Virus record (IMG/VR): IMGVR_UViG_3300013137_000023
Location: 1 to 56,925 of that record
Reading direction: 5' to 3' (one strand)
From: a virus
Lineage: Duplodnaviria; Caudoviricetes
Length of the DNA: 56,925 nucleotides
A model generated the notes under the pieces. It made no database searches. It had not been told where the DNA came from and saw nothing but the letters and a program-made list of their open reading frames with translations. The first letter of the stretch is position 1; each line of letters begins with the position of its first letter. Position numbers and translations under genes: made by a program. Shown here one piece after another: positions 2,551 to 10,665 of this stretch.

Positions 2551-2604
2551 GTGTATCATGCGCTTTTTCGTGATACACGGTTTCCGCTCAATTACTTGTT
2601 ATGC
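2551..2604 (+). repeat. Truncated attC (3' half only), left boundary of the array
   Basis: CCGCTCAATTACTT-GTTATGC R' end at 2598-2604 and hairpin 2551-2578; no R'' seen. Confidence 0.55.
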
Positions 2605-2853
2605 GTCTTGCGGAAGTATCGCCTCACACTCACGCCACAGCCTCGCAGGGTCGTGGTGCCGCGTGAAGTCCAGCAACACCTTCAAGGCCTCTCGGTCCAT
2701 ACCAAGCGAGTGAACTGGGTCGTGTTGCGACAGCAGCAAAGCGCAGCATTCCCGAGTCAGGGCCAGATCAAGCCTTGCTTCTACGTTTTCGCGCTCGGCC
2801 ATCCACCGCTTCACGGTGTCGTTGTTGCAGGGACATATACCAAATTCGTTCAT
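2599..2853 (-). CDS. Cassette A hypothetical protein (inverted orientation)
   Basis: AAGGAGG SD; stop codon lies in the R' core. Confidence 0.7.
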   Translation of the reverse strand: MNEFGICPCNNDTVKRWMAERENVEARLDLALTRECCALLLSQHDPVHSLGMDREALKVLLDFTRHHDPARLWRECEAILPQDA

Positions 2854-2874
2854 GTCTTCCTCCTTTCATCACAC

Positions 2875-2933
2875 GCCTAACCTGGCGTTGCAGCGGACCC
2901 GTGTGCCACGGCCCGCCGAACTTTTCGTTAGTA
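2875..2933 (+). repeat. attC site 1
   Basis: GCCTAAC...CAGCGGAC...CCGCCGAACTTTTC-GTTAGTA imperfect palindrome. Confidence 0.85.
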
Positions 2934-3086
2934 TTAATAAATAACGGCGTAGTAAATTACATAAAACCATGAAAATATGCCGTGTAAAATAGCCCATAAA
3001 ATTGATTTATTAATGCTCCATGAAATAGTTACTGCTATCGCAGACCCTAAACCAATTCCAGAACTTGTTGCTGTTTCTTTATTCAT
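2934..3086 (-). CDS. Cassette B small membrane protein (~50 aa)
   Basis: Hydrophobic GIGLGSAIAVTISWSINKSILWAILHGIFSWFYVIYY; the ORF extends upstream to 3149 inside attC2. Confidence 0.75.
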   Translation of the reverse strand: MNKETATSSGIGLGSAIAVTISWSINKSILWAILHGIFSWFYVIYYAVIY

Positions 3087-3113
3087 AATGATGAACCTTT
3101 CTTTAATTAAAAA

Positions 3114-3169
3114 TACTAACAAGGTCAATTCAGCGGACTCGTTCCTCACCGCTGATTTTTTCGTTGGCC
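3114..3169 (+). repeat. attC site 2
   Basis: TACTAAC...TCAGCGGAC...CCGCTGA...C-GTTGGCC. Confidence 0.8.
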
Positions 3170-3360
3170 TTCACAATGTCGGGGTGGCATTCCGTGCAGT
3201 ACGCCTCACGACGAAACGGCGTGTAGCTCTGACCAGGTGTCCCGGCCCACTCCGACCACTCGTACCTCTCCCGCACCTTGTCGCACCCCGTGCATTTGCC
3301 ACGAGGAAGGCGAACAAGGCGATGGAGGACTACCTTCATTCGCTCGCTTCGCTCACTCAT
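3130..3360 (-). CDS. Cassette C Cys-rich (CxxC...CxxC) hypothetical protein
   Basis: CTGC and CTEC; ORF starts inside attC3 and ends inside attC2. Confidence 0.6.
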   Translation of the reverse strand: MSERSERMKVVLHRLVRLPRGKCTGCDKVRERYEWSEWAGTPGQSYTPFRREAYCTECHPDIVKANEKISGEERVR

Positions 3361-3387
3361 TTCGGAGCCTCAACTTTCTCGTTATGT
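3309..3387 (+). repeat. attC site 3
   Basis: GGCGAAC...TGGAGGACTAC...GGAGCCTCAACTTTCTC-GTTATGT. Confidence 0.75.
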
Positions 3388-3621
3388 GGAACTTTTGGCT
3401 AAATCACCAGCCATTATTTCTACTGTATAACCTTCTCTATTAGCAACTTGTAGAAATCCAAAATCAAACCTTGTTCCCTCAGTAAATCTATAATGGTCAG
3501 AGGCAGTTACTCGTAGTTCGTGTTCATATCCTGTTTTAGGGTCGCATTTAACCCATATTGCAATTATTTTTTTCATCTTTTCCATTTTAATCTCCCGCCA
3601 AAAGTCCACATAACAAGCCAA
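3382..3621 (-). CDS. Cassette D hypothetical protein
   Basis: ORF fills the cassette; stop codon in the R' core; true start may be MEKMKK. Confidence 0.65.
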   Translation of the reverse strand: MACYVDFWREIKMEKMKKIIAIWVKCDPKTGYEHELRVTASDHYRFTEGTRFDFGFLQVANREGYTVEIMAGDLAKSST

Positions 3622-3735
3622 TCAAACCGACAAAAAATATCGGTGGTGCTGTTAAGGGTCTTGGCTATTTTTAATTTGTAAATCATTTAATTATTTCATT
3701 CTCATTTTTTGCGGTTTATCGGCAAAGCGTTAGGC
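3608..3735 (+). repeat. attC site 4 (long, 128 bp, AT-rich loop)
   Basis: ACATAAC AAGCCAATCAAACCGACAAAAAA...TTTTTTGCGGTTTATCGGCAAAGC-GTTAGGC. Confidence 0.8.
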
Positions 3736-3944
3736 GGCACATCGCCAGATGCTCCTGCGAGTATCCCGCCAGGTGCGTACATCGCCTCAAACTCTCCGTC
3801 CCACTGCACGAAAGAGCGCGTCCCGTCGTGCATCGCCCAAAGCTTGCCGCATCGCGTACAGCCGACTTTCCGCGCTCCGTGGTTCAACACTCGCTCAACA
3901 ATGTAGCGATGGCCGAATACTGCGCAAATCAACCGTTCGAGCAT
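3702..3944 (-). CDS. Cassette E small phage protein (DUF1660-like C...GH, CxxC)
   Basis: LICAVFGHRY...CTRCG; GAGGAGG SD. Confidence 0.65.
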   Translation of the reverse strand: MLERLICAVFGHRYIVERVLNHGARKVGCTRCGKLWAMHDGTRSFVQWDGEFEAMYAPGGILAGASGDVPPNALPINRKK

Positions 3945-3959
3945 ATATCAACCCTCCTC

Positions 3960-4026
3960 GCCTAACCCGGCGTTCGAGCGGGACGCTTCGCCTATCGGCT
4001 TCGCGCCCCTCAACTTTGCGTTATGT
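3960..4026 (+). repeat. attC site 5
   Basis: GCCTAACCCGGCGTTCGAGCGGGACGC...GCGCCCCTCAACTTTGC-GTTATGT, classic attC pattern. Confidence 0.92.
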
Positions 4027-4041
4027 GTTGAAGGGAGACCG

Positions 4042-4236
4042 TCATGTCACAATTTGGATTACCTTGTTTTTTAGAAAATTTAAGGCTTTTCGCAAACCCA
4101 CAGACAGAGCCAGAAAAATACAATCTTTACAATGGTCTTCGGAGTATGTCTGAGGGCCTTGCATCTTTAGTCCTAATCGTTGACAATATTCAGACGCAGT
4201 TAGATCAGATAAATAGAAAATTGGATCAGCTTTCAT
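4042..4236 (-). CDS. Possible antisense ORF fully overlapping the cassette F gene
   Basis: AGGAGG SD 5 nt before ATG on - strand; 64 aa. Confidence 0.4.
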   Translation of the reverse strand: MKADPIFYLSDLTASEYCQRLGLKMQGPQTYSEDHCKDCIFLALSVGLRKALNFLKNKVIQIVT

Positions 4237-4238
4237 AA
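4044..4238 (+). CDS. Cassette F hypothetical coiled-coil protein (canonical cassette orientation)
   Basis: GAAGGGAG SD just after R'; heptad-like C-terminus. Confidence 0.65.
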   Translation: MSQFGLPCFLENLRLFANPQTEPEKYNLYNGLRSMSEGLASLVLIVDNIQTQLDQINRKLDQLS

Positions 4239-4262
4239 TAACCTCCTATTAAAAATTAAATC

Positions 4263-4311
4263 ACATAACAACCGGCTCGACTTGACGAGCAAGTCAGCCG
4301 GGACGTTATGC
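4263..4311 (+). repeat. attC site 6 (minimal, 49 bp)
   Basis: ACATAACAACCGGCTCGACTTGACGAGCAAGTCAGCCGGGAC-GTTATGC. Confidence 0.8.
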
Positions 4312-4612
4312 TCTTTGAATCTGGCTTGCAATGTAGGGTTGCAAGGTTGGGCAAATACCTTTCAGAGGAGGTGGTTAACTTGAAAAAGTTAATACACATT
4401 TTGAAGGGGGCGCGCTTCCGAGTTATTAATCATTTGTACCACCCTTGAACGTGTTAGGCTATCATTTTTGAGTTCAAGAGCCGCTTGATTAGACTTTGGA
4501 AGGCAGAAGGTAATAGTAATGTCTCTTTCTGCTTCGATAGTCGGGCAAAGGGAACACACATTACCGCGCCGCCCTTCTTTTCCATTCCTACATTGCAAGC
4601 CAGATTCAAAGA
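4312..4612 (+). ncRNA. Candidate structured ncRNA in cassette G (retron msr-msd-like architecture)
   Basis: Perfect 26-bp IR (4312-4337/4587-4612), two short stem-loops, then a long branched stem; GAAA loop and G.U pairs favour + strand. Confidence 0.55.
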
Positions 4613-4663
4613 TCGTTTGTGGCTAATACCCACGAAAATATTATAAAAAAATAAAAGTTGATA

Positions 4664-4726
4664 GCATAACCACCGGCTCGACCTCGACCGCCAAAAGACG
4701 GCGGCAGGTCAGCCGGAGCGTTATGC
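4664..4726 (+). repeat. attC site 7
   Basis: GCATAACCACCGGCTCGACCTCGACCGCC...GGCGGCAGGTCAGCCGGAGC-GTTATGC; related to attC6. Confidence 0.88.
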
Positions 4727-4739
4727 GTAAATATCACCA

Positions 4740-5390
4740 TCACCTATTTGCCTCAAAGAACGCTTGTGCAAATCCAGGCGGTGTAATTGCCCTGCGTTCC
4801 TGCCTTGTGTATTTGCCGTAATATTCCGGGTATATGTCCTTGCTCTTGAGCATCGAAAACTTAACCATGCCAGACGGCTTCTCGGTTGTTTTCGGAAGGG
4901 GCTTGTTGAACTTACCCCACAGCGCCGTTGTCTTCTGGTAGTTGTCTCCATATTCCCACGGCTGGAAGATCATCGCTGGTTCTTTTAGCCACTTCTTGAG
5001 CAAGCTGTTTGCCGGATTCTCTATGGCCCAAAACTTCGGCTGTGCGGTCAGTATTATCCGGCAACATGCCGCAGCCACTTCAAGCCCTGCCTCGAAATCG
5101 TGCGTGTAGTTTCCCTTGCAATGGAAATATTTGGCTATGCTGAAATTATCGCAGGGCGTGGCGGCTAAAATGCCGTACACGTTATCAGGTGGTATGTAGA
5201 GCCTGACATCATCAGTAGGCAGAGTTACTATTCTCACATCATAGCCTGCTTCGACATAGGGGCGGCTCCATGAGCCCGTGCCTCCACAAAGATCAAGAAT
5301 GATACGATGCGCATAACAAGCGCATCGAGAGGGACGCGGTATCCCGCCGTCTTCTTTTTTCATTTCTGCCTTATTCACCGCGCCCCTCAT
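4740..5390 (-). CDS. Cassette H short C5-cytosine DNA methyltransferase-like protein
   Basis: Motif I LDLCGGTG, motif IV ATPC, motif VI IENP; start codon inside attC8. Confidence 0.75.
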   Translation of the reverse strand: MRGAVNKAEMKKEDGGIPRPSRCACYAHRIILDLCGGTGSWSRPYVEAGYDVRIVTLPTDDVRLYIPPDNVYGILAATPCDNFSIAKYFHCKGNYTHDFEAGLEVAAACCRIILTAQPKFWAIENPANSLLKKWLKEPAMIFQPWEYGDNYQKTTALWGKFNKPLPKTTEKPSGMVKFSMLKSKDIYPEYYGKYTRQERRAITPPGFAQAFFEANR

Positions 5391-5404
5391 GCTTGTCGTT
5401 ATTT
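5311..5404 (+). repeat. attC site 8, right boundary of the array
   Basis: GCATAACAAGCGCATCGAGAGGGACGCGG...CCGCGCCCCTCATGCTTGTC-GTTATTT. Confidence 0.88.
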
Positions 5405-5776
5405 CCCCCTGTTCGGTTCATTAGGATCAATTGTTTGTTTATAAGACCACATAATAAAATCAAGAATTGTTTCTGATAAACTTCCCCCGGTAATATTGAT
5501 CCAGTCTGCAACTAATTCGTCCAAGCATTTATGTAATTCAATGTGCCTGATTTTATGCTCTGATTTACTCATATTCCTGTAGTCCTTTTGTGTTCCCATC
5601 AATTTCTTCCTTTCAGTATTATACATATCGAACGCTTTTGGGTTGCCGTAGTAATTCCCGCTTTCATCAAGAAACAAAAGGTTCCGTTTTCTAAATGTGC
5701 CTTTGCAATTATGAGGGCCAATACCGCCCAAGTTTCTTCCACACCATAGGCATTTATAGGGCTTGTTATTCATCAT
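5399..5776 (-). CDS. Hypothetical phage protein
   Basis: GGAGGG SD; CxxC; HIELHKCLDELVAD segment. Confidence 0.65.
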   Translation of the reverse strand: MMNNKPYKCLWCGRNLGGIGPHNCKGTFRKRNLLFLDESGNYYGNPKAFDMYNTERKKLMGTQKDYRNMSKSEHKIRHIELHKCLDELVADWINITGGSLSETILDFIMWSYKQTIDPNEPNRGK

Positions 5777-6162
5777 CCCTCCAATTCCAGTTTGAGCTGT
5801 CCCGCCAGTTTTGCGGCGGTTATGTTTCCCTGAATTGATACCGTCCTTAGATAGTCGAAGGCCCTGCGTCTGAGTTGTTCAATCCATGTCTTGTGTTCTT
5901 CGGGGTCAACTATCCACCAGTAACCCACTTCAAAGTCGGCCCCTATGGGATGTCCAAATCGCCTGAAATCCCGGATAATCTTTTGGACCTGCTTTTGTCC
6001 AACCCCGGTCATTCCGGTTATTTCCCGGCTTGTCATGGCGTTTTCCCGGCCTTGACAACTGAGGTAAAGCAATGACAGGATGTTCTTTTCAGACTGGTTT
6101 GTGTGTGCGTACATTATTTCCCTCCCTTTGACGCCTGCTTCCGGGCCATCAAAAACCCCCAA
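5773..6162 (-). CDS. Winged helix-turn-helix DNA-binding protein
   Basis: TSREITGMTGVGQKQVQKIIRDFRRFGHPI...GYW pattern; probable start MYAH. Confidence 0.7.
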   Translation of the reverse strand: MGVFDGPEAGVKGREIMYAHTNQSEKNILSLLYLSCQGRENAMTSREITGMTGVGQKQVQKIIRDFRRFGHPIGADFEVGYWWIVDPEEHKTWIEQLRRRAFDYLRTVSIQGNITAAKLAGQLKLELEG

Positions 6163-8135: not shown

Positions 8136-8246
8136 GGCGGGTTAAAGCAGATTACGGGAGATTAGGGGAGATTATAAAATTCGGATATAATAAAATCAAT
8201 AGGTTATAAATTGTGAACTAATTAAATTAGCCTTTTTTAAACAATA

Positions 8247-8966: not shown

Positions 8967-8995
8967 ATCATACCACAAAAAAACACGGATGTCAA
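8967..8995 (-). promoter_or_regulatory. sigma70-type promoter with extended -10
   Basis: TTGACA-17 nt-TATGAT with TGn. Confidence 0.75.
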
Positions 8996-10439: not shown

Positions 10440-10665
10440 GCTTTTCCCTCACTATCCGCAATCGTTCGGGGTCGTGTTTGTTTCCGTAACAGCCGAAATA
10501 ATCTAAGACCCACCATAACAGGGCTTCCGGTGCGTCCAGTTCATCGCCCTCCACATCATCTTCGATAACGTGCCTTACTATTAATTCTTTACCCTCATTA
10601 TCTTCTTCGGGATATTCAATAAGGAATCCGTTTTCGACTTTTTCGATTGAGCAGAACCATGACAT
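10432..10665 (-). CDS. Hypothetical acidic phage protein
   Basis: IEKVENGFLI; AGGAG SD. Confidence 0.65.
   Translation of the reverse strand: MSWFCSIEKVENGFLIEYPEEDNEGKELIVRHVIEDDVEGDELDAPEALLWWVLDYFGCYGNKHDPERLRIVREKHD

Follow-up and report, generated by a model that had tools for sequence, protein, structure and literature searches.

The window analysed here is the whole of the IMG/VR virus record IMGVR_UViG_3300013137_000023 (56,925 bp, estimated to be complete), the genome of a tailed phage from lake water that encodes a large terminase, a portal/adaptor protein, RecT, two exonucleases and a primase-helicase. Nearly all of its long open reading frames (ORFs) from 1 to 47 kb lie on the minus strand. 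Within 2.5 kb, at 2598–5404, this genome carries eight integron attC sites, all on the plus strand and without an integrase, that delimit eight gene cassettes. Six of these have their ORF on the minus strand. An initial annotation, made from the letters alone, had described inverted cassettes at 2599–5390, which is right to within a few bases, and its count of six minus-strand ORFs stands: five are backed by homologues and that of cassette 2 by ORF length and a ribosome-binding site.

The array belongs to the early/recombination gene block, where it has small early genes on one side and an exonuclease–RecT pair on the other, and is embedded in a run of co-oriented small genes upstream of that pair. 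Searches of the complete record with the integron-integrase model TIGR02249 and the tyrosine recombinase model PF00589 gave no match. By the definition of Cury et al. 2016, the array is a CALIN, a group of attC sites that has no integron integrase with it. It is not a complete integron, with an integrase gene (intI), an attI site and a cassette promoter (Pc) beside the array, as its left end appears to be a half-site and no attI is recognisable. The cassettes (C1–C8) and their attC sites (a1–a8) are the following (SD, Shine–Dalgarno sequence).

C1: 2599–2927, 329 bp, 58% GC; minus strand; 84-aa ORF at 2599–2853 with its own SD, AAGGAGG; attC a1
C2: 2928–3163, 236 bp, 33% GC; minus strand; hydrophobic ORF at 2934–3086, 50 aa (71 aa from a GTG at 3149); attC a2
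C3: 3164–3381, 218 bp, 60% GC; minus strand; CxxC...CxxC ORF at 3130–3360, 76 aa; attC a3
C4: 3382–3729, 348 bp, 35% GC; minus strand; 67-aa ORF at 3382–3585, SD GGGAG; attC a4
C5: 3730–4020, 291 bp, 60% GC; minus strand; DUF1660-type zinc-ribbon ORF at 3702–3944, 80 aa; attC a5
C6: 4021–4305, 285 bp, 39% GC; plus strand; 64-codon ORFs with SD on both strands, the plus-strand ORF at 4044–4238; attC a6
C7: 4306–4720, 415 bp; no strand assigned; no convincing ORF; attC a7
C8: 4721–5398, 678 bp; minus strand; DNA methyltransferase ORF at 4740–5390, 216 aa (phrog_757, E 1e-32); attC a8
a1: 2875–2933, plus strand; cores GCCTAAC/GTTAGTA
a2: 3114–3169, plus strand; cores TACTAAC/GTTGGCC
a3: 3309–3387, plus strand; cores GGCGAAC/GTTATGT
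a4: 3608–3735, 128 nt, plus strand; cores ACATAAC/GTTAGGC
a5: 3960–4026, plus strand; cores GCCTAAC/GTTATGT; three extrahelical bases
a6: 4263–4311, 49 nt, plus strand; cores ACATAAC/GTTATGC
a7: 4664–4726, plus strand; cores GCATAAC/GTTATGC
a8: 5311–5404, plus strand; cores GCATAAC/GTTATTT

Anatomy and strand of the attC sites

On the plus strand, each of the eight sites is an imperfect inverted repeat with a left core in ..AAC (R'') and a right core in GTT.. (R'). The sites are mutually dissimilar and have the lengths (49–128 nt) and cores of attC, a6 falling slightly under the quoted 57–141 nt. According to the accessible text of Nivina 2016 (PMC5027507), the extrahelical bases share an arm with AAC in the top strand, and those of the bottom strand are usually a G at position 16 and a T at 23/24, with a 6-bp stem between them. 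We aligned each 5' arm by hand with the reverse complement of its 3' arm and found an extra base at position 16 of the plus-strand AAC arm in all eight sites (a C on that strand in five) and an extra A at 23/24 in seven, the exception being a2; a third extrahelical base stands between the other two in a3, a5, a7 and a8. Since the extrahelical bases lie on the AAC arm of the plus strand, plus is the top strand and minus the recombinogenic bottom strand. The minus-strand ORFs thus run opposite to the usual cassette polarity and with the phage genes, as had been read initially.

A strict attC scanner, purpose-written from the rules in the accessible text of Nivina 2016, returned six plus-strand matches in the window, all in the array, and one minus-strand match elsewhere, against 1.45 in shuffled windows (both strands together). 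It missed a2 and a3, which were both placed by hand, and gave 30 matches on 639 kb of unrelated loci. The lone minus-strand match, at 10563–10636, is at the chance level of the shuffles. A MAFFT alignment of the eight sites was structurally useless, no covariance model was built, and an Rfam search yielded nothing relevant. The exact a6/a7 attC pattern was rejected as a probe: it had no match in viral contigs and 71 in genome contigs, about chance for 17 fixed bases by our own estimate, with real attC sites in just a few of them (contigs L020, L044, L059 and L074).

Cassette genes

All six bottom-strand ORFs lie downstream of their own attC, rather than on the top strand upstream of it as in the textbook cassette. 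Homologues support minus-strand coding in C1, C3, C4, C5 and C8, and these ORFs encode conserved proteins, of the small phage-type kinds (CxxC proteins, a DUF1660 protein, a methyltransferase) named by the initial annotation. C1 has 55 homologue clusters at 60–81% identity, 23 of them exactly 84 aa long. For C3, whose product has two CxxC pairs, a single further homologue cluster was found apart from that of C3 itself; the homologue of C4, at 54% identity, comes from a viral contig of 24.7 kb (L134). C5 belongs to the DUF1660 "prophage protein" family; the direct query match is weak, and its 127 homologue clusters include many annotated PF07874 and one named DUF1660 family phage protein by NCBI. 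For the C8 methyltransferase, 1,580 representatives have E values of 0.001 or less. For C2, no family or relatives were found in the libraries tried, and the call rests on an open frame in 33% GC DNA together with an SD.

The two remaining cassettes differ. C6 is probably an ordinary forward cassette with the plus-strand ORF as the likelier gene, to judge from single-sequence AlphaFold2 models (predicted local distance difference test score 85.5 for the plus-strand and 63.2 for the minus-strand ORF); the Atlas feature scores of the two ORFs are 0.89 and 0.78, both below 0.9, and the plus-strand ORF has no relatives in viral contigs. C7 contains a 33-nt inverted repeat (4312–4344 and 4580–4612) enclosing 235 nt, and its minus strand has a predicted RNA fold of -119.8 kcal/mol (z = -7.8) with no Rfam family match. 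It may be a geneless regulatory cassette, a small RNA or a miniature inverted-repeat transposable element (MITE)-like insert.

Start and stop codons

Read on the minus strand, a cassette runs from C through the attC body to R'' (as GTTRRRY), the SD, the ORF and a terminal RYYYAA. C1, C2, C4 and C5 start 15–25 nt after R'', each with an SD of its own; that of C5, GAGGAGGG, adjoins R''. C3 has no start codon after R''. Its ATGs lie at 3360 and 3339, in the loop and the L'' box of a3, and its sole SD-like motif is the GAGG of the L' box. The usable starts of C8 (an ATG at 5390, a GTG after GAGGGG and an ATG at 5363) are likewise all inside its attC, an ATG within R'' being out of frame, so that about 25 N-terminal codons are encoded by a8. 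Members of the C8 family align from query residue 27–30 and mostly begin 2–8 residues earlier, where the window has a8 instead. Both genes are probably translated from signals inside the attC leader, as judged from the position of candidate start codons, and the claim that ORFs begin within attC (C3 in a3, the methylase in a8) holds, with no usable starts elsewhere.

Comparable arrangements occur outside the window. In two short metagenome contigs (L080, 572–667; L081, 598–693) an unrelated, membrane-like ORF is joined to an attC that shares about 90% identity and the in-loop ATG with a3; 18 attC-encoded N-terminal residues are all that this ORF and C3 have in common. In a Rubrivivax CALIN (L099), too, an SD and an ATG inside the attC loop stand ahead of a DUF1660 gene.

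Stop codons are borrowed in two ways. The last three bases of RYYYAA, in the R' core, form the TAA stop of C1 (2599–2601), of C4 (3382–3384) and of the flanking phage gene at 5399–5776, as the initial annotation had noticed. Beyond what it had reported, C3 and C5 have no in-frame stop before their cassette junction and end in the neighbouring attC: C3 reads 11 codons into a2 to a TGA at 3130–3132, and C5 reads nine codons into a4 to a TGA at 3702–3704.

Cassette boundaries and mobility

The G/TT junctions fall at 2598/9, 2927/8, 3163/4, 3381/2, 3729/30, 4020/1, 4305/6, 4720/1 and 5398/9. Passage through a circle leaves the six bases completing a cassette's own attC at the 5' end of that cassette. 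From C1 to C8, the perfect match between the 5' end and the reverse complement of the cassette's own R'' extends over 4, 9, 3, 10, 8, 8, 8 and 8 nt, whereas that to the physically following R' extends over 5, 3, 3, 4, 4, 6, 7 and 5 nt. Six of the eight cassettes thus match their own R'' over 8 nt or more, as expected of mobile gene cassettes, and two of the pairs of 5' end and R'' show up as inverted repeats (I3, belonging to cassette 2, and I4). GC content steps from cassette to cassette (58, 33, 60, 35, 60, 39, 45 and 50% from C1 to C8).

Comparison between copies places the ends of the units at the same bases. An alignment of C5 DNA from the window and four other copies, hence in five contexts, shows similarity from the AAC of the upstream core to GCCTAAC. 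At the protein level, 19 of the 30 rows of the C5 family alignment are conserved to ..PN (CCT AAC) and then continue into unrelated tails, with total lengths of 69–125 aa. The C3 homologue shows 70% identity over residues 1–66 and is unrelated after ..AN, the AAC junction. Because the 5' ends match the cassettes' own R'' and identity to the C3 and C5 homologues ends at AA/C, these are mobile units.

Homologues and related arrays

Homologues of the cassette genes occur mainly in viral contigs and not as ordinary sense-orientation cassettes of bacterial integrons. The counts, from a viral and a genome collection (the latter of 185,579 species) that differ in make-up, are 32 viral versus 4 genome loci for C5, 12 versus 3 for C8, 5 versus one metagenome-assembled genome (MAG) for C1, and one viral locus for C4. 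C1 as a single query found nothing in viral contigs, and an alignment query was needed. Homologues of C3 come from phage-like metagenome contigs only, with full-length copies in an 85-kb and a 13-kb contig.

In four families (C1, C4, C5 and C8) the homologues include resident phage genes without attC. We inspected 28 of the 36 C5 loci, leaving out L100, a weak partial match, and seven that duplicated the identity and range of an inspected locus. Nine are in cassette form (six with a reversed scanner match directly upstream, two with a match over the ORF end, and L106 with a half-site), and the other 19 are ordinary phage genes that lack a site and end at a stop of their own. One locus (L105), 87% identical to C5, lacks attC and has its stop one codon past the cassette end point. 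The closest phage homologues of C8 (L082 and L083, 76 and 77% identity) lack attC and start at an ATG of their own, and DNA similarity of C8 homologues to the window runs from the stop codon and fades before the attC. Plain phage genes also represent C1 (L135, L136, L137 and L139) and C4 (L134). C1 recurs in cassette form in the viral contig L138 and in a 4.5-kb Acidobacteria MAG contig (L140), in arrays of six reversed attC; L140 also contains a Dam methyltransferase cassette. For C3, the context in L078 and L079 keeps attC and ORF together, directly behind a promoter-like repeat and ahead of an RNA ligase gene. In L078, the 85-kb phage-like contig, a promoter-like motif (TTGACT ... TATAGT or similar) stands before each small gene, at 5184–5215, 5555–5590 and 5940–5975.

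Other phage arrays contain C1 and C5 too, again as reversed cassettes. Related arrays lie in phage DNA beside a DNA polymerase gene (L102), between DnaB helicase and large terminase genes (L103), after an exonuclease gene (L104) and before a portal gene (L107); in all of them, L140 included, the attC bottom strand carries phage genes and cassette ORFs alike. In L104, one reversed cassette is also filled, at 3314–4297, by the gene of a radical-SAM protein (phrog_9298, E 3.5e-48) whose 327 aa are many for a cassette product. At about 5950–6186 of L106 (a 37-kb viral contig estimated to be 99% complete) lies a decayed DUF1660 cassette with its ORF cut short and only the L''–R'' half of its attC left, the fossil of a reversed cassette. 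No integron integrase was found in any of the eight related viral records searched, of which seven are estimated to be less than 90% complete and to which L078 and L079 do not belong. The Rubrivivax CALIN (L099, 4441–6076, in a 250-kb contig of a MAG) has at least four reversed attC and lies beside a PAPS-reductase-like gene; a true integron, with IntI and forward cassettes, is on another contig of the same genome. The Polaribacter phage P12002L was rejected as a comparison, as this AT-rich genome gave only scattered, uninformative scanner matches.

A DUF1660 tree (25 rows, 72 columns) is poorly resolved. Its well-supported branches force at least two changes between the native and the cassette state; the columns are too few to give the direction or number of events, and a single origin is neither shown nor excluded.

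Strand of cassette genes beside integron integrases

Two controls gave the ordinary orientation. In Tetrasphaera phage TJE1, the attC found by the scanner share the strand of the annotated genes, and each follows its ORF. In the Rubrivivax MAG, a true IntI (455 bits, cut-off 265) is accompanied by a canonical array, with attC on the strand opposite intI and a forward 200-codon ORF between attC sites. For a base rate, we used 21 IntI flanks, 20 from a sample of 301 genomes of one class and one from this MAG; in all 14 flanks with pairs of strict attC matches, the attC strand was that expected from the direction of intI. Gene strand was then called automatically from the longest ORF per strand, weighted by GC3-GC2 (GC content at third minus second codon positions) in GC-rich cassettes. 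Among 73 cassettes beside bacterial IntI, 62 were called top (forward), nine ambiguous, one bottom (backward) and one 'none'. The same rule gave 17 bottom, four top and seven ambiguous calls for the window and the related phage-type arrays, one of the four top calls being an artefact of two missed sites in the window. Further cassettes in the related arrays are likewise reversed.

Array ends, flanking genes and promoter candidates

The features that border the array or lie upstream of it are listed below.

Left array end: 2575–2604, plus strand; R' core GTTATGC at 2598–2604 with junction G2598/T2599, an L'-like stretch before it, no L'' or R''
Flanking phage gene: 5399–5776, minus strand; 125 aa; TAA stop at 5399–5401, the TTA in the a8 R' core (G5398/TTATTT)
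Promoter candidate: 8967–8995, minus strand; sigma-70-like, the best upstream of the array, 11 of 12 consensus matches and a TG extension
Second promoter candidate: 8171–8199, minus strand; upstream of the array, from a consensus scan

Judged by eye and with moderate confidence, 2575–2604 is probably half of a broken attC (a0): read on the minus strand it resembles the R'–spacer–L' halves of a1, a3, a5 and a8, and it has no upstream AAC partner. A hairpin with an 8-bp stem at 2558–2585, ahead of this half-site, abuts the SD of the gene at 2286–2537. On the right, the array junction is the a8 R' core GTTATTT, which contains the stop of the flanking gene. No good promoter or terminator was found within the array by scan. 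We found no near-identical phage in the INPHARED collection, and relatives reached via a 221-aa exonuclease (L001–L006) share just that gene, leaving no array-free sister genome for the insertion site.

The array in lake metagenomes

Parts of the window are present in eight lake-water metagenome runs. In contigs assembled from four runs, none skips a cassette, and we saw no array variant without one. The segment 3379–3626, from the C4 junction to the first bases of a4, reaches a depth of 89–124x in three other lake runs, compared with 3–7x for the backbone (about 20 times). Contigs diverge from the window at 3379, 3626, 3973, 4023 and 5402, at or inside attC sites, the break points 3379 and 5402 falling within a few bases of the junctions 3381/2 and 5398/9. 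Depth and break points together argue that cassette 4 and several attC also exist in other, more abundant lake DNA. Left of the 3379–3626 segment, the foreign contig continues as the apparent start of another gene, not as attC.

Interpretation and alternative explanations

We consider it likely that the locus is an integrase-less cassette array of reversed polarity whose cassettes are read with the genes of the phage. The recombinogenic bottom strand of attC is the phage coding strand, and the mRNA of each cassette would comprise an attC hairpin, a ribosome-binding site, the ORF and RYYYAA. The six genes are of phage type. Their products are a methyltransferase, which probably shields the DNA of the phage from restriction, a zinc-ribbon protein of the DUF1660 type, two proteins with CxxC motifs, a small membrane protein and a protein whose function is unknown. 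Expression would most likely occur by read-through from phage early promoters, with each ORF translated from its own SD. As attC forms the 5' leader, it could supply a start codon (C3, C8); the terminal TAA of a cassette could supply the stop (C1, C4), and a cassette without an in-frame stop would take one from downstream DNA (C3, C5). The array was presumably assembled one cassette at a time by an integron integrase acting in trans, which may have been that of the host, of a co-infecting element or of an ancestral one.

Several observations weigh against this picture. The array is mixed, as C6 probably has the ordinary orientation and C7 is geneless, and the published TJE1 phage CALIN is in ordinary orientation, so that reversed polarity is no general phage rule. 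At the candidate starts within attC, an SD in the L' box would be paired in the hairpin. The scan of the upstream region gave seven promoter-like sites where shuffles predict 10.7, a weak result, and none of the eight lake runs is recorded as RNA. As to the comparisons, the viral and genome tallies set unlike collections side by side, the related arrays were reached via homologues of reversed cassettes and so are no independent or unbiased sample of polarity, and the automatic caller is noisy on short GC-rich cassettes (the DUF1660 cassette of L101 was called top, whereas homology says bottom).

That the sites are not integron sites at all, and instead represent a phage intergenic repeat (a terminator, a processing site or the substrate of another recombinase) that resembles attC, is very improbable. 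The lack of an integrase, the position of the sites before genes like leaders and the single such site directly after a phage promoter in L078 would suit such hairpins. They would not account for eight sites that all fit the positional rules of attC (AAC/GTT cores, extra base at 16, bottom-strand T at 23/24, 6-bp stem) while varying in sequence and length as attC do, for units that each carry a circular-permutation signature, or for identity between copies that stops exactly at AA/C; the same scanner, moreover, detects ordinary arrays beside IntI. Ordinary capture of random cassettes from host chromosomal integrons, with the reversed genes drawn from an antisense minority and their alignment with phage transcription incidental, we hold to be improbable. 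Six of eight genes are reversed here, as against one of 63 called cassettes beside bacterial IntI by the same method; four families have resident phage homologues without attC, viral loci far outnumber genome loci, and other phage arrays of like polarity contain these cassettes again. Capture does have points in its favour: CALINs can arise via secondary-site insertion or rearrangement (Cury 2016 preprint, in its accessible text), C6 resembles a normal forward cassette, attC like a7 occur in bacterial MAG contigs (L044, L074), and reversed cassettes of the C1 and C5 families are found in the MAG contig L140 and in the Rubrivivax CALIN, whose MAG has IntI elsewhere. It is rather unlikely, in turn, that the array is the remnant of a phage-borne integron, built by the lineage's own integrase and deprived of intI and attI by illegitimate recombination. 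Loss of the platform would fit the platform-proximal left end, which looks like half of a broken attC (2575–2604) and is not an attI, and L106 offers another half-site fossil; against it stand the absence of any integron-integrase or tyrosine recombinase match in the window and of IntI from the eight related viral records (seven of them, as said, of limited estimated completeness).

Returning to an array read with the phage genes, a possible extension, which we put forward tentatively, is that a distinct pool of reverse-polarity cassettes is kept up in phages and also produced by them. An attC in bottom-strand sense would recombine with a secondary GTT/AAC site a gene length downstream along transcription, and the reaction would excise a circle made of the attC and the neighbouring phage gene. 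Such a route would explain the phage-type cargo with attC-less relatives in other phages, the lost stops of C3 and C5, the lost native start of C8 and the role of attC as a 5' leader able to carry an SD and a start codon. The paired states in four families, the clipped C8 start and the missing C3 and C5 stops fit, as far as the sequences go, such genesis from attC and a secondary site. The initial annotation had proposed a phage-adapted cassette class. Its phage affinity and the conservation of its ORFs hold up, whereas manufacture by phages is conjectural, and the families may also occur in host integrons, as cassette arrays assemble and bin poorly and the collections differ in make-up.

Implications for cassette origin

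Where cassettes come from is an open question. In its accessible text, the Cury 2016 preprint refers to an "unknown mechanism creating novel cassettes", and the excerpt available of a 2024 preprint names "cassette genesis" as an unexplained constraint. Here, the same phage genes are seen as ordinary genes and as end-clipped cassettes, and these pairs provide before-and-after material for testing a mechanism of genesis. If a phage-made pool is real, it would be a concrete route to cassettes de novo and an integron-type exchange network among phages. The array also indicates that attC can act as a 5' leader and can even form part of a coding region. It shows, too, that an integrase-free phage can carry exchangeable accessory genes, among them a methyltransferase of the anti-restriction type, which the integrase of a host or of a co-infecting element could rearrange. 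Should reversed arrays be common in phages, tools and surveys that assume forward genes would mis-annotate them.

Comparison with known systems

Phage morons and accessory islands are small genes of mixed GC content between conserved phage genes, orphan methyltransferases included. The units of the array differ in that site-specific recombination sites flank them and their ends are exact to the base where they recur. Sedentary chromosomal integrons contain antisense cassettes, for example toxin–antitoxin cassettes with their own promoters, in which the gene runs opposite to the polarity of the array. In forward arrays they form a minority, whereas in the window most cassettes are reversed, promoterless by scan and co-oriented with the surrounding operon. 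We found no published figure for the frequency of antisense cassettes, and a literature search that covered subscription journals little brought up no account of bottom-strand genes in phage arrays or of phage genes turned into cassettes.

With classical cassettes as presented in the accessible text of Nivina 2016 (PMC5027507), the array shares the R''/R' cores, the extrahelical bases at 16 and 23/24, the unpaired central spacer, the variable terminal structure, the G/TT crossover and one small gene per unit. Classical genes, in the same accessible sources, are on the top strand, upstream of attC and read from Pc; those of the window are on the bottom strand, downstream of attC, and Pc, attI and intI are missing.

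Phage CALINs and their methyltransferase cassettes are already known; the reversed layout of phage genes we did not find in print. Qi et al. 2023 (Front Microbiol, PMC9892861) report, in the text accessible, 17 CALINs in phage genomes and recombination of TJE1 attC. The same text describes several features that are alike in the window: an attC array without intI in a phage lacking an integrase, a methyltransferase cassette, boundary motifs of the GTTRRRY type and a proposed action of bacterial IntI in trans. For TJE1 and PH101 it reports cassettes arranged as is typical of bacteria and, in the part accessible, makes no statement on ORF polarity relative to the attC strand. In the window, by contrast, six of eight genes are on the bottom strand, some cassettes start in attC or lack a stop, and the genes have phage homologues without attC.

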